Assembly: GCF_003334355.1 (NCBI RefSeq)
Contig: NZ_QOWP01000014.1
Origin: Escherichia coli
GTDB lineage: Bacteria > Pseudomonadota > Gammaproteobacteria > Enterobacterales > Enterobacteriaceae
Reading direction: 5' to 3' (one strand)
DNA length: 64,000 nucleotides
Positions 4,296-59,789 of the stretch are shown one piece after another. The notes under the pieces were generated by a model. That model saw only the letters and a list, made by a program, of their open reading frames with translations. It had not been told where the DNA came from and did not search any database. Numbering within the stretch: the stretch's first letter is position 1; each line of letters opens with the position of its first letter. The position numbers and the translations under genes were made by a program.

Positions 4296-4512
4296 CTGAT
4301 GCCGCACGTAGGCCTGATAAGACGCGGGCAGCGTCGCATCAGGCATCTTGTGCAAATGTCGGATGCGGCGTGAACGCCTTATCTGACCTACAAAAACAAA
4401 TTTATCAATGAGTTATAAATCCCTGTAGGCCTGATAAGACGCGCCAGCGTCGCATCAGGCATCGTGTGCGAATGTCAGATGCGGCGAAAACGCCTTATCT
4501 GACATACACACG
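4296..4512. repeat. REP/BIME cluster (two REP-pair units) between convergent yacG and mutT
   Basis: Two copies of the motif ggcctgataagacgcg..cagcgtcgcatcaggc and two copies of gatgcggcg..aacgccttatctgac in inverted arrangement; classic enterobacterial REP palindromes. Confidence 0.9.
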
Positions 4513-4904: not shown

Positions 4905-4935
4905 TATAAAAAAGGCGCAGAATCCTGCGCCTTTT
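4905..4935 (-). terminator. Hairpin with flanking A/T tracts between secA stop and mutT start (attenuator/terminator-like)
   Basis: ggcgcag-aatc-ctgcgcc stem-loop flanked by A-run on one side and T-run on the other; sits in the 59-bp secA-mutT spacer. Confidence 0.5.
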
Positions 4936-4952
4936 ACTTTAACAGTTAGCTT

Positions 4953-7658
4953 TTATTGCAGGCGGCCATGGCACTGCTTGTATTTTTTACCAGAACCGCA
5001 CGGGCAAGGATCGTTACGTCCTACTTTGCGCTCTCCAGTTTGCGCCGCCAGTGCAGCTGCGGCTGCAGAGTCGTCATCCTGATGGCTAAGCTGCTGCATT
5101 TGCGCTAAACGCTCGGCTTCCATACGACGCTGTTGTTCCAGCTCCTCAACCTCTTCAGGCATACGTACCTGGACTTTGCTCAACGTGCTGATAACTTCAT
5201 ATTTTAACGACTCCAGCATCGCTGCAAACATGGAGAACGATTCACGTTTGTATTCCTGCTTCGGATCTTTCTGTGCGTAGCCACGCAGGTGGATACCCTG
5301 ACGCAGATAGTCCATCGCTGCCAGGTGCTCTTTCCACAGGGAGTCAAGCGTTTGCAGCATGACGCCTTTCTCGAAGTGACGCATCATCTCAGCACCAACC
5401 ACTTCTTCTTTACGCTGATACACTTCGATGGACTGCGCCAGAATTCGCTCACGCAGCGTCTCTTCATGCAGTTCTGGTTCTTTATCCAGCCACTCGGCAA
5501 TTGGCAAATCGAGGTCGAAATCGTTCTTCAGACGTTCCTGCAGCCCCGGAATATCCCACATTTCTTCCAGCGACTGTGGTGGAATGTAGGCATCAATGGT
5601 CGCTTTGAACACATCTTCACGAATGCTGTTAATGGTTTCGCTCACATCGCTGACATCCAACAGTTCGTTACGCTGGGAGTAAATGGCGCGACGCTGATCG
5701 TTAGCCACGTCATCATATTCCAGCAGTTGCTTACGAATGTCGAAGTTACGGCTTTCAACTTTACGCTGGGCGTTGGCAATCGCTTTAGTCACCCACGGGT
5801 GTTCAATGGCTTCGCCTGGCTTCATACCCAGTTTACGCATCATGCCGGATACTCGGTCGGAAGCAAAAATACGCATCAGCGCATCTTCCATCGACAGGTA
5901 GAAACGGGAAGAACCAGCATCCCCCTGACGACCAGAACGACCGCGCAACTGGTTATCGATACGACGGGATTCGTGACGCTCGGTACCGATGATATGCAGG
6001 CCACCTGCTTCCAGTACCGCATCGTGACGTACCTGCCAGTCGGCTTTAATTTTTTCAATTTGCTCTGCGGTCGGATTTTCCAGCGCGGCAACTTCTGCCT
6101 GCCAGCTACCACCGAGCACAATATCTGTACCACGACCCGCCATATTGGTCGCGATAGTCACCGCAGCCGGATAACCTGCCTGAGCAACAATCGCCGCTTC
6201 GTTGGCGTGGAATTTGGCGTTCAGGACGTTGTGCTTAATACCGGCTTTGGTCAGTTCGTTTGACACCAGCTCCGATTTTTCGATGGAGATAGTACCCACC
6301 AGCACCGGCTGGCCTTTCGCAGTACGTTCTTTGATATCTTCAATGATCGCCTGAATTTTTTCCGCTTCAGTCATGTAGACCAGGTCCGGCAGATCTTTAC
6401 GAATCATTGGACGGTTGGTCGGAACAACGACGGTATCCAGCTTGTAGATTGAGCTAAATTCGAAAGCTTCGGTATCAGCAGTACCGGTCATCCCCGCCAG
6501 TTTTTCATACAGACGGAAGTAGTTCTGGAAGGTGATCGAAGCCAGCGTTTGGTTTTCGTTCTGGATCTGCACACCTTCTTTCGCTTCCACAGCCTGGTGC
6601 AGACCATCGGACCAGCGACGGCCCTGCATGGTACGACCGGTGTGTTCGTCAACGATGATAACTTCACCATCTTTAACGATGTAGTCGACGTCACGGGTAA
6701 ACAGCGCATGAGCGCGCAGCGCCGCCGTTACGTGGTGCATCAGCATGATGTTGGCCGGAGAGTACAGAGACTCCCCTTCATCCATGATGCCCTCTTTCAC
6801 CAGCAGTTCTTCAATCAGCACCAGACCACGTTCGGTCAGGTTCACCTGGCGAGATTTTTCGTCCACCGAGAAGTGGCCTTCGCCCTGGAAGGTTTCGGAG
6901 TCTTCTTTTTCCTGACGGATCAGGTGCGGAATAATTTTATTCACGCGTTTATACATTTCCGAGCTGTCTTCTGCCGGGCCGGAAATGATCAGCGGTGTAC
7001 GCGCTTCATCGATCAGGATGGAGTCCACTTCGTCCACCAGCGCATAGTGCAGTTTACGCTGTACACGTTCTTCAGGGCTGAACGCCATGTTGTCGCGCAG
7101 GTAGTCAAAGCCGTATTCGTTGTTCGTACCGTAAGTGATGTCAGCTGCGTAAGCTTCGCGCTTTGCCGGTGCTGGCATGCCCGGCAGGTTGATACCGACA
7201 GTCAGGCCAAGGAATTCAAACAGCGGACGGTTGTTTTCGGCGTCACGTTGCGCCAGGTAGTCGTTGACGGTAACTACGTGCACGCCTTTACCGGTTAGTG
7301 CGTTCAGGTAAGCAGGCAGCGTTGCGGTCAGGGTTTTACCTTCACCGGTACGCATTTCGGCGATGCAGCGTTCGTTAAGAACCATACCGCCGAGTAACTG
7401 AACGTCGAAGTGACGCATACCAAAGACGCGCTTACTTGCCTCACGTACCACGGCGAAAGCTTCCGGGATCAGATTTTCCAGCACTTCGCCTTTTTCCAGA
7501 CGTGCACGAAACTCTGCGGTTTTCCCTTTCAGTTCTTCGTCGGAGAGTTTTTCCATCTCCGGTTCCATGGCATTGATGATGTTGACCACTTTGCGCATCC
7601 GGCGCAGGGTGCGATCGTTACGACTACCGAAAACTTTAGTTAATAATTTGATTAGCAT
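4953..7658 (-). CDS. secA: Preprotein translocase ATPase SecA
   Basis: 901-aa ORF; DEAD-like motor motifs and C-terminal zinc-binding tail [14 protein letters not shown]. Confidence 0.98.
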
Positions 7659-9480: not shown

Positions 9481-10632
9481 TTAATCAGCTTGCTTACGCA
9501 GGAATGCTGGAATATCCAGATAATCCGGCTCTTTCGCAGTTTGCGGCGCATTGTCATTCACGACTTTAGCAATCGGCTTCTGCTCCTGGGTCAGCGGAGC
9601 CATCCCGTGCTGCTGGTAGCGATCCATCACTGGCTGCTGAACCTGCTTATTGGTCACCAGAGTGATTTCAGGACGTTTGTCCATGCCGATACCTGTCGCA
9701 ACAACAGTTACGCGCAGCTCGTCATTCATATCCGGGTCAAGAGAAGTACCGATAACCACGGTCGCGTTGTCGGAAGCAAATGCACGGATGGTGTTACCTA
9801 CCGTTTCGAACTCATCCAGACGCAGGTCGAAGCCCGCTGTGATGTTAACCAGCACGCCGCGTGCGCCAGACAGGTCGATATCTTCCAGCAGCGGAGAAGA
9901 GATAGCCATTTCAGCAGCTTCTTCCGCACGGTCTTCACCGCTCGCCACGCCAGAACCCATCATTGCGTAGCCCATTTCAGACATTACGGTGCGTACGTCT
10001 GCAAAGTCCACGTTCATCAAACCCGGACGAGTAATCAGTTCAGCGATACCTTGCACAGCGCCTTTCAGTACATCGTTCGCTGCGCCAAACGCATCCAGCA
10101 GGGAGATACCGCGGCCCAGAACTTTCAGCAGTTTGTCGTTCGGGATAGTGATCAGAGAGTCCACATGCTTGGACAGTTCAGTGATCCCCTGCTCCGCGAA
10201 TGCCATACGCTTCTTGCCTTCAAAGTTGAAAGGCTTAGTGACGACAGCAACGGTCAGGATACCCAAATCTTTTGCCACTTCAGCGACGACTGGTGCTGCA
10301 CCTGTACCGGTACCACCACCCATACCCGCAGCAATAAAGACCATGTCTGCACCTTCCAGCGCAGCACGCAATGCATCGCGATCCTCATCAGCCGCATTGC
10401 GGCCAACTTCTGGATTAGCGCCAGCGCCCAGTCCTTTGGTGATACCGCTACCGATTTGAATCGTCTGTCCAACCGCTGTTTTACGCAGCGCTTGTGCATC
10501 GGTATTTACCGCGAAGAATTCAACACCTTCAATGCGCTCACGCACCATGTGTTCAACAGCATTACCGCCGCCGCCGCCGACGCCGATGACTTTAATCACC
10601 GCGTCATTGGTAAGTTCCATTGGTTCAAACAT
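9481..10632 (-). CDS. ftsZ: Cell division GTPase FtsZ
   Basis: 383-aa ORF; tubulin signature GGGTGTG. Confidence 0.98.
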
Positions 10633-10692
10633 AGTTTCTCTCCGATTTGTGCCTGTCGCCTGAGGCCGTAATCATCGTCGGCCTCATAAAAA

Positions 10693-11955
10693 TTAAAACT
10701 CTTTTCGCAGCCAACTATTGAGTCGCTTGATCCACGAGCCAACTGATGCTGTAACACGTTTTTCTACTTCAGCTTCACCGTTAAGATGTGACTCTTTCCC
10801 ATAGTGAAGCAATCCCACCGCCGTCGAATAATACGGCTCCTGAGCATAATCCGTTAAACCGGTAATGTTCAGCGGCGCGCCGATACGCACTTGCGTATGA
10901 AACACGCGCTGAGCACAGGCTGCAAGACCTTCGATCTGCGCTGCGCCACCGGTTAATACAATGCCTGCCGCCAGGTGATGTTTAACCCCTTGTTGGCGAA
11001 GCTTTTCCTGCAACTGCAATATCTCTTCGTTGACCAGGTTGAGCAGCTCGGTATAGCGCGGCTCGATCACCTCTGCCAGGGTCTGACGTTGCAGACTCCG
11101 CGGCGGACGACCACCTACGCTCGGCACTTCCACGCTCTCATCTTTTCCAACGATGGAACCCAGCGCACAACCGTGGCGAACTTTAATCGCTTCGGCGTCG
11201 CTTGGCGGCGTGCCAAAGGCGTAAGCGATATCACTGGTCACGACATTGCCAGCATAAGGAATTACCTTAGTGTGGCGCAATGCCCCACCGGTATAAACGG
11301 CGATATCCATTGTACCACCACCGATATCGACGACGCAGACACCCAGTTCACGTTCATCTTCCGTCAATACCGAATAACTTGATGCCAGTCCGGCAAATAT
11401 CAGTTGGTCAACTTTCAGCCCACAACGTTCAACCGCTTTGACGATGTTTTTCGCCATATCGTTGTGACATGTGATCAGGTGCACTTTTGCCTGCATCCGC
11501 ACGCCCGAAAGTCCTACCGGATTCTTGATCCCTTCCTGATAGTCAATCGCATACTCTTGCGGGATCACATGCAGCACACGATGCTCATCGCGCACACGCA
11601 CCGATTTCGCGGTGTGGACGACGTTTTCCACATCTTCTTGCGTTACTTCTTCTTCAGAAATAGGCACCATACCAATTTCATTCTGGCAGCTGATGTGCTT
11701 ACCAGAAAGCGCCAGATATACCGAAGAGATCTGACAATCTGCCATCAATTCTGCCTGGTCAATGGCGCGTTGTACGCACTTGACCACGGATTCGAGGTCG
11801 TTCACCCCGCCTTTATCCATACCACGCGACGGGCAGCTGCCCACGCCAATGATATTGACCATACCGTCGGGCAGAACTTCCCCTACTAAAGCGGCAACCT
11901 TCGCGGTACCAATCTCCAGTCCTACTACCAGTTTTCTGTCCGTCGCCTTGATCAT
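10693..11955 (-). CDS. ftsA: Cell division protein FtsA (actin-like ATPase)
   Basis: 420-aa ORF; actin/Hsp70 fold motifs; 4-nt overlap with ftsQ. Confidence 0.98.
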
Positions 11956-28582: not shown

Positions 28583-30307
28583 TCAGGTTCTCTCCGTTTT
28601 GCTTAACCACATTTCATCCATTCCGCCCCCGCGAATCTGCATCGGGTAGACGTGCTCGCTGCCATCGACGGTAACATCAACAAACACCAGGCGATTATTG
28701 CGCACCTGTTCCAGCGCCTCGCTAAGTTTGCTTTCCAGCTCATGCGGATGAGAAATCTGGATCCCGACATGCCCATAGGCTTCCGCCAGACGGACGAAAT
28801 CGGGTAGCGATTGCATATAAGATTGTGAATGACGGCCGGAATAGATCATGTCTTGCCACTGCTTCACCATCCCCAGATAGCGGTTATTGAGATTCACCAC
28901 CAGTACGGGCAACTCGTATTGCAACGCGGTAGACAGTTCCTGGATGTTCATCTGAATACTGCCGTCGCCAGTGACGCAAACCACGGTTTCTTCTGGCAAC
29001 GCCATTTTGACGCCCAGTGCCGCAGGTAAACCAAAACCCATCGTGCCGAGGCCACCGGAATTGATCCAGCGACGCGGTTTGTCGAATGGATAATAAAGTG
29101 CAGCAAACATCTGGTGCTGCCCGACATCGGACGTCACGTAAGCGTCTCCCTTCGTCAACCGCCAAAGAGTCTCGATCACCGCCTGCGGTTTAATCTTTTC
29201 ACTGTGAGTGTCATATTTCAGGCACTGACGAGCGCGCCACTGTTCAATTTGCTGCCACCAGTCGCGGATCTCATCCAGCGGTTGATGGGCGGATTCTTGC
29301 GACAAGAGTTCAAGCATTTGTTCGAGGACCTGGCGAGCATCCCCCACAATCGGGATATCCGCAGTCACGGTTTTAGAAATGGAAGTAGGATCAATATCGA
29401 TATGCAGAACAGTGGCATTTGGGCAGTACTTTGCCAGATTGTTCGTCGTTCGGTCATCAAATCGTACCCCGACGGCGAAAATCACATCCGCGTTATGCAT
29501 CGTCATATTGGCTTCGTAGGTACCGTGCATTCCCAGCATGCCCAGTGCCTGACGATGCGTTGCCGGAAACGCCCCCAGCCCCATCAATGAGCAAACAACG
29601 GGCAGATTCAACGCCTCCACCGTTTCTTTCAACTGCTGATGGCAGCCCGCCGTGATTGCCCCACCGCCTACGTAGACAACCGGTTTTTTTGCCGCTACCA
29701 GCGTTTGCAGAGCACGCTTAATTTGCCCTTTATGTCCGGTAGTAGTGGGATTGTAAGAACGCATACTGACCGACTCCGGCCAGACATAGGGTAATTTGTT
29801 CGCCGGATTAAGAATATCTTTCGGTAAATCAACGACTACTGGTCCTGGGCGACCACTTGCCGCCAGCCAGAAAGCCTTTTTCAGCACCTGCGGAATGTCT
29901 TCCGTTTGCTTAACCAGAAAACTGTGTTTAACCACCGGTCGCGAAATCCCCACCATGTCGCACTCCTGAAAGGCATCGTAACCTATCAACGAGGTCGCTA
30001 CCTGCCCGGAAAGGACAACTAATGGAATGGAATCCATATAAGCGGTGGCGATGCCAGTAATCGCATTGGTCGCCCCTGGACCCGACGTTACCAGCACGAC
30101 GCCGACTTCCCCGGTCGCGCGCGCCAGGCCATCGGCCATATGCACCGCCGCCTGCTCATGACGAACTAATACATGATCAATACCACCCACGGTATGCAAT
30201 GCATCATAAATATCAAGGACTGCGCCTCCGGGATAACCGAATACTTGTTTAACGCCCTGATCGATAAGCGATCGGACGACCATCTCGGCTCCAGACAACA
30301 TCTCCAT
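28583..30307 (-). CDS. ilvI: Acetolactate synthase III large subunit
   Basis: 574 aa from internal ATG ([14 protein letters not shown]...); ThDP-binding motifs. Confidence 0.95.
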
Positions 30308-30624
30308 GGCCTGCCTCACTGTTTGACGGAAAAAATGTGTAAAACACATTAACCGTCCGATCTTGCTTAAGCAATTGGCAGCCAGAGACATAAACACGGG
30401 GTAATAAGAATAAACAGGAGGAAAGGTGAAAAGAAACGATAAAATCCTCCATTACAGAGGATTAAATTGATAATAAATCGGCTGAATCCCACAACTTACA
30501 GCAATTTCTCTATTTTTTTAATTAATCCTAAAATAGAGAGCCCACACATTCAGAATAAAATTCTACATTCAATAAAAAATGCAGAATAAACCAGACATTC
30601 ATGTCTGACCTATTCTGCAATCAG
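30308..30624 (-). promoter_or_regulatory. ilvIH promoter region with multiple AT-rich Lrp-type sites
   Basis: AT-rich 317-bp spacer with repeated cagaataaa-like motifs resembling Lrp consensus; ilvIH is an established Lrp-activated operon. Confidence 0.55.
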
Positions 30625-31569
30625 TTAGCGTTTGCAAATTGAGACTAATTGCTCTTCCATCCACTGATGGCCTTTATCGCGCCCGGCAGCTTCATGCCAG
30701 GAGAGATAACAGGTTCTGCTGTTTTGTTTTAACGGCAGCGGTAATACCTGTAATTCTAAGGATTCAGCGAACTCTTCAGCCAGCCAACGCGGCGCAATAG
30801 CGACCAAATGCGTTTGCGACACCACGCTAAGTACGCTCATCATTGCCATGCCCTGATACGCGATACTGGCTTGCTTATCTACCGTGTCATACCAAGGTTG
30901 ACTAAATGACGCGAAACGATCGAGCGAAACCGCCGCATGTTGTTCGTTATAAACATCATGTTTCAGTAACGGGCCCTTAATTGTTGGATGATTTTTGCTG
31001 GCTACCAGCACCATTTCATCTTTAAATAATGGTACGCTGGTAAATTCAGGACGATGGAAGTCTTCATAACTAATCACAAACTCCGTTTCCTGATAACGCA
31101 GCTGATGTTCAGTGTTCTGATTTAATGAAGACTTGAACATAACATGTATATTTGGCGCAATCTGCTCAATGTGATTATAAATCTGCGAGGTCAGAATGCT
31201 GTCTAACGGGCTGCAAACACAAAGATGAAATACACGTTCACTGCTCGCGGGTTCAAAACCTGAACCAGGCAATTCATTTTGTACTAGTTGCAATGCCTGA
31301 CGAACTGAACCAAAAAGTTGAAATGCGCGAGCAGTCGGTTGAATACCACGGCCATAACGAACAAAAAGCTCGTCATTAAACATCACCTTCAGGCGTGCAA
31401 CAGCGTTACTGACCGCAGGTTGCGACATTCCCAGAACATGAGCGGCACGAGTAATGTTTTGCTCCTGCATCACGGCATCGAAAACGGTTAATAAGTTGAG
31501 ATCGACCATGCGTAGCTGTGGCTTGCTTAACTCCGCCGTCTCTGGATGATCTGTTTGTACCTCTGGCAT
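30625..31569 (-). CDS. leuO: LysR-type transcriptional regulator LeuO
   Basis: 314 aa from internal ATG ([30 protein letters not shown]...); LysR HTH; divergent from leuLABCD. Confidence 0.94.
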
Positions 31570-31624
31570 ACTTAACTCCACTGTCACACTTAACTCCCTT
31601 TCCCTTATTGGAATGCAGAGAAAT

Positions 31625-32060
31625 AATCCTCGAGAATATGATTTATCATGCATATAAAATAAGAAAAAGGAAAATGAGTAAAATTAGGAAAACATAAAGA
31701 TACGGGTTCTGATAAAAACAGAATCCATTGCCGTGGAATGAGTCATTTACCACAGCATAATAATCCATAATGTTTTTGTTGCGAAAACAATCTAATCATA
31801 ACTACCGCGAATACTCAATCATCTACAAAATGGATTAAATGTGCTTATTTAATAATTAATTTATATATTTAATGCATTAATTCTTAACATTAATTGATCA
31901 ATAATATTCACCAAATCAATATCAAAAAAAATCGCAAAACATATAATTCAATACAAATCATCAGGATAGGTTTTGCAACGCGTGCATTTTGTCCCCTTTT
32001 TCCTCGTTGATTAGATGCAAAAATTTATGCTGAAATATGTCAACCGATGAAAAGCGTCGG
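31625..32060. promoter_or_regulatory. Strongly AT-rich leuO-leuL intergenic island (H-NS-type silencing / promoter-relay region)
   Basis: About 430 bp of very AT-rich sequence with A/T tracts (aataattaatttatatatttaatgcattaattcttaacattaattgatcaataatatt); lies between divergent leuO and leuL. Confidence 0.6.
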
Positions 32061-32228
32061 TAGTTAAGCAGAAATTAATATCGCTTACTTTAACCACCGC
32101 AGCACAATTAGCTAATTTTACGGATGCAGAACTCACGCTGGCGGGACGTTTTTATTGCGTCAGGGTTGACATCCGTTTTTGTATCCAGTAACTCTAAAAG
32201 CATATCGCATTCATCTGGAGCTGATTTA

Positions 32229-32315
32229 ATGACTCACATCGTTCGCTTTATCGGTCTACTACTACTAAACGCATCTTCTTTGCGCGGTAGACGAGTGAGC
32301 GGCATCCAGCATTAA
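32229..32315 (+). CDS. leuL: leu operon leader peptide
   Basis: 28-codon [31 protein letters not shown] with four consecutive CUA Leu codons; followed by attenuator hairpin. Confidence 0.9.
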
Positions 32316-32338
32316 GCCAGCACGCAGTCAAACAAAAA

Positions 32339-32365
32339 ACCCGCGCCATTGCGCGGGTTTTTTTA
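32339..32365 (+). terminator. leu attenuator (intrinsic terminator)
   Basis: acccgcgc-catt-gcgcgggt stem-loop followed by 7 T, 24 nt after leuL stop and 43 nt before leuA. Confidence 0.9.
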
Positions 32366-32407
32366 TGCCCGAAGCGAGGCGCTCTAAAAGAGACAAGGAC
32401 CCAAACC

Positions 32408-35070
<2,663 letters not shown>

Positions 35071-38343: not shown

Positions 38344-38570
38344 AAAAAAAACCAGCAGGTATAATCTGCTGGCGGGTGATTTTACACCAATACTCAGTCA
38401 CACATGATGCAGGCAAGTCAACTTTCAGAATTGCGGTCATCCCACTGCATCAGTCCTTCAAGCATGGTTAATCGTTGTGGGACGCTTAACCAACGCAACC
38501 AGCACAACTTCGCTGTCGCGGTAAAATAGTGCTGATAAAACTGACGCATGGGGCACCTCCTTGCTTCATC
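38344..38570 (-). ncRNA. sgrS: Dual-function small RNA SgrS (glucose-phosphate stress)
   Basis: Reverse strand shows the SgrS 3' region ...gcatcatgtgtgactgagtattggtgtaaaatcacccgccagcagattatacctgctggtttttttt (ptsG-pairing segment plus terminator); contains sgrT ORF; divergent from sgrR; 5' end approximate. Confidence 0.88.
38418..38549 (-). CDS. sgrT: Small protein SgrT (glucose transport inhibitor) encoded within SgrS
   Basis: 43-codon ORF MRQFYQHYFTATAKLCWLRWLSVPQRLTMLEGLMQWDDRNSES inside the sgrS transcript. Confidence 0.85.
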   Translation of the reverse strand: MRQFYQHYFTATAKLCWLRWLSVPQRLTMLEGLMQWDDRNSES

Positions 38571-40321: not shown

Positions 40322-40420
40322 TAACGCCGTTCTCAACGGGGTGCCACGCAAACGCGTGCGCTGAGAAAATACCCGTCGAACCTGATCCGGATAACGCCGG
40401 CGAAGGGATTTGAGGCTCCT
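40322..40420 (+). promoter_or_regulatory. sroA: TPP riboswitch (THI element; sroA) in thiBPQ leader
   Basis: Conserved THI-box core ggggtgcc...gctgagaaaatacccgtcgaacctgatccggataacgccggcgaagggatttg about 40 nt upstream of thiB start. Confidence 0.88.
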
Positions 40421-40456
40421 TCTCAAGTCCTTTGCCACTCTTTTTTGAGGTGCAAA

Positions 40457-49105: not shown

Positions 49106-49375
49106 GCCGCATCAGGTATGTAACGCCTGATGCGATGCTGGCGCGTCTTATCAGGCCTACACGTTGCGATTTTGTAGGCCGGATAAGCAAACCGCATCCG
49201 GCATTCAACGCCTGATGCGACGCTGGCGCGTCTTATCAGGCCTACGCGTTCCGATTTTGTAGGCCGGATAAGCAAAGCGCATCCGGCATTCAACGCCTGA
49301 TGCGACGCTGGCGCGTCTTATCAGGCCTACACGCTGCGATTTTGTAGGCCGGATAAGCAAAGCGCATCCGGCACG
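49106..49375. repeat. Tandem BIME array: three copies of an about 85-bp REP-containing unit between araA and araD
   Basis: Unit cgcctgatgcgacgctggcgcgtcttatcaggcctac..cgattttgtaggccggataagcaaagcgcatccggcattcaa repeats with 85-bp period (motif gcgcgtctta at 49141, 49226, 49311). Confidence 0.92.
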
Positions 49376-55589: not shown

Positions 55590-56249
55590 ATGGGGATGGA
55601 AAACTACAATCCACCGCAGGAACCCTGGTTGGTTATCCTGTATCAGGATGACCATATTATGGTGGTCAACAAGCCGAGCGGTTTGTTGTCAGTGCCGGGT
55701 CGTCTGGAAGAGCACAAAGACAGCGTGATGACGCGCATTCAGCGTGATTATCCGCAGGCAGAATCGGTGCATCGTCTGGATATGGCTACCAGCGGCGTGA
55801 TTGTAGTGGCGCTGACCAAAGCCGCGGAGCGGGAGTTAAAACGCCAGTTCCGCGAGCGCGAGCCGAAAAAGCAGTATGTGGCCCGCGTCTGGGGGCATCC
55901 ATCCCCCGCAGAAGGTCTGGTGGATCTGCCGCTGATTTGCGACTGGCCAAACCGCCCGAAACAGAAAGTCTGTTACGAAACGGGTAAACCTGCGCAGACG
56001 GAATATGAAGTGGTGGAGTATGCGGCGGATAACACGGCAAGAGTGGTGTTAAAACCGATTACCGGGCGTTCGCATCAATTGCGTGTGCATATGCTGGCGC
56101 TGGGGCATCCGATTCTCGGCGATCGTTTTTATGCATCACCAGAAGCGAGAGCGATGGCACCGCGTTTGTTGCTACATGCAGAGATGTTGACGATTACCCA
56201 TCCGGCGTATGGCAATAGTATGACGTTTAAAGCGCCAGCGGATTTTTAA
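55590..56249 (+). CDS. rluA: 23S rRNA/tRNA pseudouridine synthase RluA
   Basis: 219 aa from internal ATG (MGMENYNPPQEPWLVILYQDDHIMVVNKPSGLLSVPG...); RluA-family catalytic motif HRLDMATSGV. Confidence 0.95.
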   Translation: MGMENYNPPQEPWLVILYQDDHIMVVNKPSGLLSVPGRLEEHKDSVMTRIQRDYPQAESVHRLDMATSGVIVVALTKAAERELKRQFREREPKKQYVARVWGHPSPAEGLVDLPLICDWPNRPKQKVCYETGKPAQTEYEVVEYAADNTARVVLKPITGRSHQLRVHMLALGHPILGDRFYASPEARAMAPRLLLHAEMLTITHPAYGNSMTFKAPADF

Positions 56250-56261
56250 TCGTCACGCTGG

Positions 56262-56356
56262 CGCAGTTCGGTAGGCGGATAAGGCGTTCACGCCGCATCC
56301 GGCAATTGTGCGCCGATTGCCTGATGCGACGCGGCCGCGTCTTATCAGGCCTACAG
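56262..56356. repeat. REP pair between convergent rluA and djlA
   Basis: gcggataaggcgttcacgccgcatccggca and gcctgatgcgacgcggccgcgtcttatcaggcctac REP motifs. Confidence 0.88.
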
Positions 56357-56364
56357 TTTAAAAC

Positions 56365-57180
56365 TTATTTAAACCCTTTCTGCTGCTTTATCAGCTCATA
56401 TGCCTGCTGAATTTCCTGCGCTTTCTGCTTCGCCATCTCCATCATCTCAGGCGGCAAACCTTTCGCCACCAGCTTATCGGGATGGTGTTCACTCATCAGC
56501 TTACGGTAGGCACGTTTGATGGTGGTCGCATCATCCGTCGGCTTCACGCCCAGCACATTACAGGCATCTTCCAGCGTCGGGCCACGCTGCGCTTGCTGCC
56601 AGTTACCACCGCCAGATTGCTGCTGATAACCGCCGCCAAACTGTGCACCGCCCTGCATCATGCGCAAAAACTGGTCAAACTGGGCGCGGGAGATCCCTAA
56701 TTCTTCAGCAATGACATACAGCACCGCCCGTTCATTCGGGTGCAGTGAACCATCAGCAAACGCCGCCTGAATCTGGATCTCCAGAAACATACGAATTAAG
56801 TCAAAACGACCAAAGCAGACACTGCGAAACTGGCGCATCTTTTCGCGCAGCGGGTAATTGTCTGATTTTCCCACCCGGAACGCATTTTGCGCCGCAGTAC
56901 GGGAAGCGCCATGAAGATTCATTCGGTCCATCAACTGGCTGGCGATATGAATATCAGCCTCCGTGACGCGACCTTTGGATTTGGTTAAATGCCCCATCAC
57001 TTCAAAAGTGGTGGCAAAAAACAGCGCCTGACGCTCACGCTGGTTGGCGAACCACGCCATTTTACGGCTACGGGCTTTATCAAACATATGGCCAATTAAC
57101 AGGCCTAACACTACGCCCCAAAAGCCGCCGCCCATCAGTAAGGCCACGGCCACGCCAATGATTTTTCCCCAATACTGCAT
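56365..57180 (-). CDS. djlA: Membrane-anchored DnaJ-like co-chaperone DjlA
   Basis: 271 aa from internal ATG ([19 protein letters not shown]...); C-terminal J-domain with HPD motif ([13 protein letters not shown]). Confidence 0.95.
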
Positions 57181-57434: not shown

Positions 57435-59789
57435 ATGAAAAAACGTATCCCCACTCTCCTGGCCACCATGATTGCCACCGCCCTTTATAGTCAACAGGGA
57501 CTGGCAGCCGACCTCGCCTCACAGTGCATGTTGGGCGTGCCAAGCTATGACCGTCCTCTGGTACAGGGCGATACCAATGACTTACCCGTGACTATCAATG
57601 CTGACCACGCGAAAGGGGACTACCCGGATGACGCCGTGTTTACTGGCAGCGTGGATATCATGCAGGGTAACAGCCGTCTGCAGGCCGACGAAGTGCAGCT
57701 CCATCAAAAAGAGGCACCAGGACAACCGGAGCCGGTACGAACCGTTGATGCGCTCGGTAATGTCCATTACGACGATAACCAGGTGATCCTCAAAGGGCCG
57801 AAAGGCTGGGCGAATCTGAACACCAAAGATACCAACGTCTGGGAAGGTGATTACCAGATGGTGGGTCGCCAGGGTCGCGGTAAAGCGGACCTGATGAAAC
57901 AACGTGGCGAAAACCGCTATACCATTCTGGATAACGGTAGCTTTACCTCCTGTCTGCCGGGTTCTGACACCTGGAGCGTGGTAGGTAGCGAAATTATTCA
58001 TGACCGCGAAGAACAAGTTGCGGAGATCTGGAACGCCCGCTTTAAGGTGGGTCCGGTACCGATCTTTTATAGCCCCTATTTGCAGTTGCCGGTGGGTGAC
58101 AAACGTCGCTCTGGTTTCTTGATCCCGAACGCCAAGTACACCACCACCAACTACTTTGAGTTCTACCTGCCATATTACTGGAACATCGCGCCAAATATGG
58201 ATGCCACCATCACGCCGCATTATATGCATCGTCGTGGCAACATCATGTGGGAGAACGAATTCCGCTACCTCTCCCAGGCGGGCGCTGGCTTGATGGAACT
58301 GGACTATCTGCCTTCAGATAAAGTCTATGAAGATGAACACCCGAACGATGACAGTTCACGTCGTTGGTTATTCTACTGGAACCACTCCGGGGTCATGGAT
58401 CAGGTGTGGCGTTTCAACGTCGACTACACCAAGGTCAGCGATCCTAGCTACTTCAATGATTTCGATAACAAGTACGGTTCCAGTACTGACGGCTACGCAA
58501 CGCAAAAATTCAGCGTTGGCTATGCGGTGCAAAACTTCAATGCCACCGTTTCAACCAAGCAGTTCCAGGTTTTCAGCGAACAGAACACCAGTAGCTACTC
58601 GGCAGAGCCGCAGTTAGACGTTAATTACTACCAGAATGATGTTGGTCCGTTTGATACGCGTATTTACGGCCAGGCAGTGCACTTTGTTAACACCAGAGAC
58701 GACATGCCTGAAGCAACCCGTGTTCACCTGGAACCGACCATCAATTTGCCGCTCTCTAATAACTGGGGCAGCATCAATACCGAAGCGAAGTTGCTGGCAA
58801 CCCATTATCAGCAAACCAATCTTGACTGGTATAACTCCAGAAACACGACCAAGCTGGACGAATCCGTTAACCGCGTAATGCCGCAATTCAAAGTTGACGG
58901 CAAAATGGTCTTTGAACGCGATATGGAAATGCTGGCTCCGGGTTATACCCAAACGCTGGAACCGCGCGCGCAGTATTTGTACGTGCCGTATCGCGATCAG
59001 AGCGACATCTATAACTACGACTCGTCTCTGCTGCAATCTGACTACTCTGGCCTGTTCCGGGACCGGACTTACGGCGGTCTTGACCGTATTGCCTCCGCTA
59101 ACCAGGTGACGACCGGTGTCACATCTCGCATATATGATGATGCTGCCGTTGAACGTTTTAATATTTCCGTTGGTCAAATCTACTATTTCACGGAGTCTCG
59201 CACTGGCGATGACAACATAACATGGGAGAATGACGACAAAACGGGTTCACTGGTGTGGGCAGGCGATACTTACTGGCGTATCTCCGAGCGTTGGGGATTG
59301 CGTGGCGGGATTCAGTACGATACACGTCTGGATAACGTAGCGACCAGTAACTCCAGCATTGAATACCGTCGGGATGAAGACCGTCTGGTACAGCTGAATT
59401 ACCGTTACGCCAGCCCGGAATATATTCAGGCTACGCTGCCTAAGTACTATTCCACTGCTGAGCAATATAAGAATGGTATTTCGCAGGTAGGTGCTGTCGC
59501 CAGCTGGCCAATTGCCGATCGTTGGTCCATTGTTGGGGCCTACTACTACGACACCAATGCGAACAAGCAAGCCGACTCTATGTTAGGTGTGCAATACAGC
59601 TCCTGCTGCTATGCAATTCGCGTCGGTTACGAGCGGAAGCTGAACGGTTGGGATAACGATAAACAACATGCGGTATATGACAACGCAATCGGCTTTAACA
59701 TCGAACTTCGCGGCCTGAGCTCCAACTACGGTCTGGGTACGCAAGAGATGCTGCGTTCGAACATTCTGCCGTATCAAAACACTTTGTGA
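57435..59789 (+). CDS. lptD: LPS-assembly outer membrane protein LptD (Imp/OstA)
   Basis: 784-aa ORF; signal peptide [24 protein letters not shown]; beta-barrel-rich C-terminus. Confidence 0.97.

Follow-up and report, generated by a model that had tools for sequence, protein, structure and literature searches.

The leuL leader and attenuator of the leuLABCD operon in a 64-kb segment of the Escherichia coli chromosome

The leu locus and its genomic setting

The window (the whole stretch of DNA that was analysed, 64,000 nt) is E. coli chromosome, carrying the dcw cluster, ilvIH, leuO, leuLABCD, sgrRST, thiBPQ, araCBAD, polB and rapA through to lptD-surA-pdxA-rsmA, and it runs colinear with K-12 (115,936 descending to about 51,900), with 98.7–99.8% identity. 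At 32229..32315 on the plus strand lies a leader-peptide ORF of 28 codons plus TAA, which starts with ATG at 32229 and ends with the stop codon at 32313–15. Directly downstream of it is leuA (2-isopropylmalate synthase; 32408..33979, +; assigned from its ORF and annotation), the first structural gene under the attenuator, and upstream is the divergent leuO, with ilvIH-leuO on one side and leuLABCD on the other. The segment 31700–32420, which takes in the promoter region, the leader and the start of leuA, is base-identical to E. coli K-12 MG1655 (reverse strand). Within it, the ORF at 32229–32315 is leuL (b0075; K-12 83622–83708), and neither the leader nor its ilvIH-leuO/leuLABCD setting differs from that of K-12. 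The strand and frame of leuL had been called in an initial annotation of this DNA, and the direct reading and the MG1655 identity agree with both; the comparison with the annotated leuL, to which the initial annotation had pointed, gives identity to b0075.

Using a 321-nt query, the locus was found in 5,400 of 5,426 complete E. coli genomes, in each case annotated as leuL, "leu operon leader peptide", followed by leuA. The Rfam family Leu_leader (RF00512) matched window positions 32215–32364 on the plus strand across the entire model (1–148 of 148), scoring 145.8 bits (E = 1e-33) against a gathering threshold of 50 bits, and a scan of all 64 kb gave the match again. This was the sole match near leuL among cis-regulatory Rfam families, riboswitch and T-box families included.

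A probable leu promoter was placed at 32166..32194 (+) from the sequence, with a -35 element TTGACA (32166–71), a 17-nt spacer and a weak -10 element TAACTC (32189–94). It was not called by a generic promoter scan, which is a limitation of the scan, as the scan needs T at position 6 of the -10 element and TAACTC fails this. The spacing of the elements is compatible with a start near 32202. The presumed transcription start of the leader is 32202 (+), which equals K-12 83735 by the exact MG1655 match, and which we take to be the mapped leuLp start (EcoCyc/RegulonDB). A Shine-Dalgarno sequence, GGAG (32217..32220, +), lies 8 nt before the leuL ATG and inside the Rfam match. When the complete leader is folded free of ribosomes, the Shine-Dalgarno sequence and the AUG fall inside the outermost helix (32215–32233 with 32307–32327), and this sequestration could restrict renewed initiation on leader transcripts that are already complete. 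The outermost helix is poorly conserved between genera.

Elsewhere in the window, divergence from K-12 is uneven. Positions 1–31937 (the dcw/sec/ilvIH side) are 99.78% identical to K-12, with 70 mismatches in 31.9 kb, and positions 31437–56249 (the leu-sgr-thi-ara-polB-rapA side) are 98.66% identical, with 332 mismatches in 24.8 kb. This shift in divergence suggests a possible recombination boundary near the leuO-leuL intergenic region. The yabP/yabQ segment of K-12 (58,177–59,687, 1.5 kb) is missing from the window, and in its place are about 118 nt (56249–56367) with a REP-like element (Rfam naRNA4, 56273–56351). The Rfam scan also matched 10624–10713 (-) to "PssrA, plasmid-encoded Shigella sRNA A" at 105.5 bits. 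By colinearity, this corresponds to K-12 105,224–105,313, which spans the ftsA 3' end and the start of ftsZ; the match has the orientation of ftsZ and lies opposite StfZ, an antisense RNA annotated there, and the family name (plasmid-encoded) seems at odds with the chromosomal location. Other features identified by the Rfam scan together with annotation were SgrS/SgrT (38344–38570, -), the TPP riboswitch (SroA) ahead of thiBPQ (40327–40426, +), STnc40 at the secA-mutT junction (4908–4977, -), and two REP/BIME elements scored as naRNA4, one between mutT and yacG (4311–4504, -) and one between araD and araA (49262–49327, +).

Control codons, alternative folds and ribosome position

The leuL codons read ATG ACT CAC ATC GTT CGC TTT ATC GGT CTA CTA CTA CTA AAC ... 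CAT TAA. Codons 10–13 (32256..32267, +) are four CUA Leu codons in succession, which we assigned as the control codons considering the sequence, codon counts and published pausing. The cluster matches the amino acid made by the operon, and 4/4 of its Leu codons are CUA. The initial annotation had described this same run, from ggt to aac, as using a rare codon, and codon counts bear this out. Using the 38 long ORFs of the same 64-kb window as the reference (16,997 codons), CTA is the rarest among the six Leu codons: it occurs 3.9 times per 1000 codons and supplies 66 of the 1,799 Leu codons (3.7%). The chance of four CTA in succession by synonymous choice is about 1.8e-6. The 12-mer formed by the run, CTACTACTACTA, occurs once in the 64 kb considering either strand, and in 0 of 100 dinucleotide-preserving shuffles.

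Beyond the leuL stop codon lies an intrinsic terminator (the attenuator; 32334..32364, +), identified by folding and the Rfam structure, with a 13-bp stem (32334–46/32351–63) and a U tract (32358–64). Its 7-bp GC core consists of CCCGCGC (32340–46), a CATT loop (32347–50) and GCGCGGG (32351–57), after which there are exactly 7 T (32358–64) before the A at 32365. With the flanking A6/U6, the minimum-energy stem reaches 13 bp over 32334–32363 at -20.2 kcal/mol. The strong GC hairpin and 7-T tract noted at the outset are therefore present, as an all-GC stem of 7 bp with T at 32358–64. The 24-nt distance given for the hairpin is correct if counted from the leuL stop (32316–32339) and incorrect if counted from the CUA run, which is 72 nt away. 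The attenuator ends at 32364, leaving a gap of 43 nt to the leuA ATG. A generic promoter/terminator scan did not call the hairpin at 32334–32364 on either strand. We regard this as a limitation of the scan, likely because the A6:U6 stem extension uses up the T run that the scan seeks. This symmetry of A tract and U tract also gives the hairpin a bidirectional look.

The leader as a whole is highly structured, as the 164-nt RNA folds at -55.7 kcal/mol compared to -37.1 ± 3.8 kcal/mol for shuffles (z = -4.9). A protector structure (32239..32302, +) was placed by both the minimum-energy fold and the Rfam consensus structure. It consists of a helix at 32239–48:32293–302, a core helix at 32254–60:32286–92, which takes in the first two CUA codons, and an inner hairpin in which CGCA (32270–73) pairs with UGCG (32281–84). 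The third and fourth CUA codons (32262–67) are unpaired in this fold, and in the free leader the protector and the terminator coexist. Only one position in the leader, U32296/G32297 (32296..32297, +; -1 = U32296), matches the G-10/Y-1/G+1 pattern of the elemental pause consensus, and it lies 11–12 nt past the inner hairpin and 4 nt past the protector core. A NusA-enhanced RNA polymerase pause with the pause consensus has been described in leuL, following the protector hairpin and near the end of the leader ORF (PMC9291695), and U32296 is a candidate for its pause nucleotide.

The 5' strand of the antiterminator (preemptor) was located by ribosome-position folding as GCGCGG (32282..32287, +), whose partner is CCGCGC (32341–46). 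As CCGCGC is part of the terminator 5' arm, the antiterminator and the terminator are mutually exclusive. We modelled the switch by folding just the transcript ahead of the ribosome's leading edge, as far as the polymerase, with the RNA ending at 32350. When Leu codon 10, 11, 12 or 13 occupied the A site, GCGCGG:CCGCGC formed 6/6 pairs (-19.9 kcal/mol). With no ribosome, or with the ribosome at the stop codon, the antiterminator formed 0/6 pairs and the terminator 13/13 once its 3' arm was present. A CUA-stalled ribosome frees GCGCGG because the protector sequesters this strand with the Leu-codon region itself. The alternative folds that the initial annotation had singled out for comparison thus behave, in this model, as attenuation requires. 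A further rare pair, the Arg codons AGA (0.7 per 1000) and CGA (3.4 per 1000), occupies leuL codons 21–22 (32289–32294). The rarity of AGA looks like a by-product of RNA structure, because AGA sits in GGUAGAC, the partner strand of the CUA codons. A ribosome stalled at AGA-CGA would mask GCGCGG, favouring termination.

Other ways of folding the leader show where the model depends on timing. Equilibrium folding of the complete leader under a 28-nt ribosome mask gave the terminator in every state and did not discriminate between states, and for the RNA lying beyond a stalled ribosome the terminator was favoured at equilibrium (-31.7 vs -19.9 kcal/mol for the antiterminator). Truncated co-transcriptional folding with the 28-nt mask gave the antiterminator for some stall positions only, because RNA behind the ribosome could pair with RNA ahead of it. 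As the terminator wins at equilibrium whatever the ribosome mask, antitermination has to be kinetic; this is the accepted view, and we adopt it as a likely description that goes beyond what the modelling demonstrates.

Taken in order, the mechanism, already established for this leader, would run here as follows. Transcription would start about 27 nt upstream of leuL, with the ribosome loading while the polymerase is still in the leader, and the two are probably kept coupled in part by the polymerase pausing once it has passed the protector hairpin. If charged tRNA-Leu is ample, the ribosome would pass the four CUA codons and reach the stop codon (32313–15), and GCGCGG (32282–87) would be either covered by the ribosome or back in the protector. 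The terminator 5' arm would then be free to form the 13-bp hairpin with its U tract, and most transcripts would stop at about 32364, before leuA. If charged tRNA-Leu is scarce, the ribosome would stall on the CUA run and keep the 5' strand of the protector open. CUA is the first Leu codon to feel such a shortage, because it is read by a minor isoacceptor. GCGCGG would pair with CCGCGC (32341–46) as soon as the latter is transcribed, and the antiterminator would hold the terminator 5' arm while the polymerase crosses the U tract, allowing read-through into leuABCD. In this scheme, we infer the promoter, the start site, the exact pause nucleotide and the kinetic details.

Published experiments address the same sequence, as the MG1655 leuL studied by Masuda et al (eLife 2021, PMC8384417) is identical to that of the window. 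Ribosomes pause at its four CUA codons, and RNA density drops 29-fold from leuL to leuA in controls vs 4-fold with stalled ribosomes (PMC8384417). In the same study, induction of a leuL-leuA'-nLuc reporter fell from 11.5-fold with four CUA codons to 2.7-fold with four UUA codons. For Salmonella, changing CUA to CUG in the leader lowered sensitivity (Carter et al, 1986, as relayed by Elf and Ehrenberg (PMC1183508)), and Elf and Ehrenberg argue for CUA as the optimal control codon (PMC1183508). The initial annotation had taken the leader for a classical attenuation sensor that appears intact, and this is upheld by the full-length RF00512 match, the MG1655 identity and these experiments on an identical sequence.

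Leu leaders across Enterobacterales and alleles within E. coli

We surveyed leu leaders in other species using one genome per species and a pattern anchored on AACGCAT and the terminator core, with Leu codons left unconstrained. The pattern scan yielded at least 120 loci, which are a sample, and 62 chance matches in GC-rich genomes were removed. Requiring at least three Leu codons directly before AACGCAT kept 58 true leaders among the matches listed, and codons were counted in 56 of them, as the other two were cut by locus ends. Among the matches listed, a LeuA N-terminus starts about 52 nt past the terminator in 57/58 leaders of other species, CUA fills most control codons in 56/56 Enterobacterales leaders, and CTA makes up 232 of the 353 leader Leu codons in these 56. 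Two layouts were seen. First, G-LLLL-NA, with four CTA, occurs in Escherichia, Citrobacter, Enterobacter, Salmonella arizonae, Leclercia and Lelliottia. Second, LL-G-LLL-NA, with mostly CTA, occurs in Yersinia, Serratia, Pantoea, Erwinia, Pectobacterium, Dickeya and Brenneria, and here the final Leu codon is now and then CTT or CTC.

Conservation of the RNA elements was assessed over 54 species among the matches listed. The segment TGCGCGGT (32281–88) is invariant in 54/54 distinct leaders/species among these matches and was unimposed by the search pattern. The protector core is 97% paired over the 54, of which 15 show a compensatory UA<->CG change, and the CGCA:UGCG inner hairpin is invariant. 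The antiterminator pairs in every one of the 54 species, with both strands invariant; the invariance of the terminator core and its partner is partly imposed by the pattern, so that helix carries no covariation signal. The outer helices are 45–65% paired between genera, with weak covariation, and their pair counts did not exceed those of shuffles among the matches listed. The outer helices are claimed for the Escherichia group only.

Among known systems close to this one is the leu leader of Salmonella (Gemmill/Wessler/Calvo; Carter et al, 1986), which has the same protector/preemptor/terminator design and the G-LLLL-NA control region, although the leader peptides of Salmonella and E. coli differ at several positions. 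The leader of S. enterica subsp. arizonae has four CTA codons and encodes the peptide MSHIVRFTGLLLLNAFSVRGRRVGGIQH, whereas S. typhimurium is reported to have three CUA in its four Leu control codons (PMC1183508) compared to four in E. coli. Yersinia, Serratia, Erwinia, Pantoea, Pectobacterium and Dickeya share the skeleton AACGCAU...UGCGCGGU...CCGCGC...UGCGCGG and are CUA-rich, with leuA about 50 nt downstream. They differ from E. coli in having five Leu codons split by Gly, the last of which is sometimes CUU or CUC, and in their outer helices. The trpL, hisL, pheL, thrL, ilvL and ivbL leaders are alike in being short and translated and in containing successive codons for the amino acid under regulation (PMC1183508; PMC9291695), and they share the 1:2 / 2:3 / 3:4 pairings, an intrinsic terminator and a coupling pause, without sequence homology to the leu leader. 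Among such systems, the leu leader is the clearest case where a rare synonymous codon, beyond the amino acid, acts as the sensor.

Within E. coli, a 50-nt probe matched 5,160 of 5,397 genomes perfectly, and another 40 had an identity within the range that a 3-nt indel would produce; the (CTA)4 allele is carried by about 96% of E. coli genomes. A (CTA)5 allele was identical in 30 complete genomes and in STEC299, i.e. at least 31 genomes. It occurs in some O157:H7 and O145 strains, whereas other O157:H7 strains have (CTA)4. A (CTA)3 allele was found in isolate F637. The sampled point variants of leuL, S17F and I26S, leave the CUA codons untouched. The leu-attenuation literature retrieved contained no mention of this (CTA)n copy-number polymorphism, and the natural (CTA)3/4/5 alleles are only a mildly new item at leuL. 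They raise the idea of a control run, (CTA)n, in which slippage adds and removes triplets in nature and whose alleles act as a reversible, non-neutral tuning of leucine biosynthesis. We regard this as speculative and unlikely on present evidence.

Weighing the alternatives

Considering the evidence together, we conclude with a probability of about 97% that this is a transcription attenuator of the ribosome-mediated kind, formed by the leuL leader of the E. coli leuLABCD operon. As it stands in this window, it is already known, intact and ordinary.

The explanation that survives best against part of this reading accepts that the attenuator works and holds that the choice of CUA is incidental, i.e. 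that it follows from an RNA-structure need (CUACU:GGUAG) and triplet slippage and was unselected for sensitivity to a scarce tRNA. The first two CUA codons do lie in the protector helix with GGUAGAC (32286–92), the rare Arg codon AGA (32289–91) appears forced because GGUAGAC pairs with the CUA codons, and the natural (CTA)3 and (CTA)5 alleles show that the run acts as a slippage-prone repeat. However, the third and fourth CUA codons (32262–67) are unpaired yet still CUA, and any codon could keep the helix via compensation, yet CUA persists in two layouts over the 56 species among the matches listed. Codon swaps also alter the response, both to UUA in E. coli (PMC8384417) and to CUG in Salmonella (cited in PMC1183508). 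We therefore favour CUA being chosen for tRNA scarcity rather than for pairing with GGUAG, and consider an incidental choice quite improbable.

Two explanations without ribosome sensing were rejected, each having a negligible likelihood. First, a ligand- or protein-binding RNA switch (a riboswitch, a T-box-like element or the target of an RNA-binding protein) would fit the strong structure of the leader (z = -4.9), but Leu_leader is the sole Rfam match with riboswitch and T-box families unmatched, the position of the ribosome explains the switch fully in folding, and a synonymous codon swap alters the response (PMC8384417), which is unexpected for a ligand-sensing RNA; the synonymous-codon effect and the lack of such an Rfam match exclude a ligand-binding RNA. 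Second, a plain terminator or insulator for upstream transcription next to a chance ORF is imaginable in that small ORFs are plentiful (77 with a length of 20 aa or more overlap 30000–35000), but leuO is divergent and there is therefore nothing upstream to terminate, the leuL ORF has a good Shine-Dalgarno sequence, a Leu run conserved in 56 species among the matches listed and a position about 50 nt upstream of leuA, four CUA codons have a chance of about 2e-6, and ribosome footprints on the CUA codons have been published (PMC8384417), so that divergent leuO, conservation and footprints exclude it.

Ribosome-mediated attenuation thus remains the reading of this locus, which serves chiefly as a control, showing that the earlier calls of strand, frame and function were correct. 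The leu leader is a classic case of a rare synonymous codon serving as a metabolic sensor, and that picture is unchanged here. To it we make the small addition that the number of control codons varies naturally in E. coli and that CUA use is conserved over two leader layouts in Enterobacterales. Engineered variants (Bartkus et al, 1991) reportedly suggest that the number of control codons sets the threshold of derepression. If so, the (CTA)n alleles found among E. coli strains would be a natural tuning knob for leucine biosynthesis.
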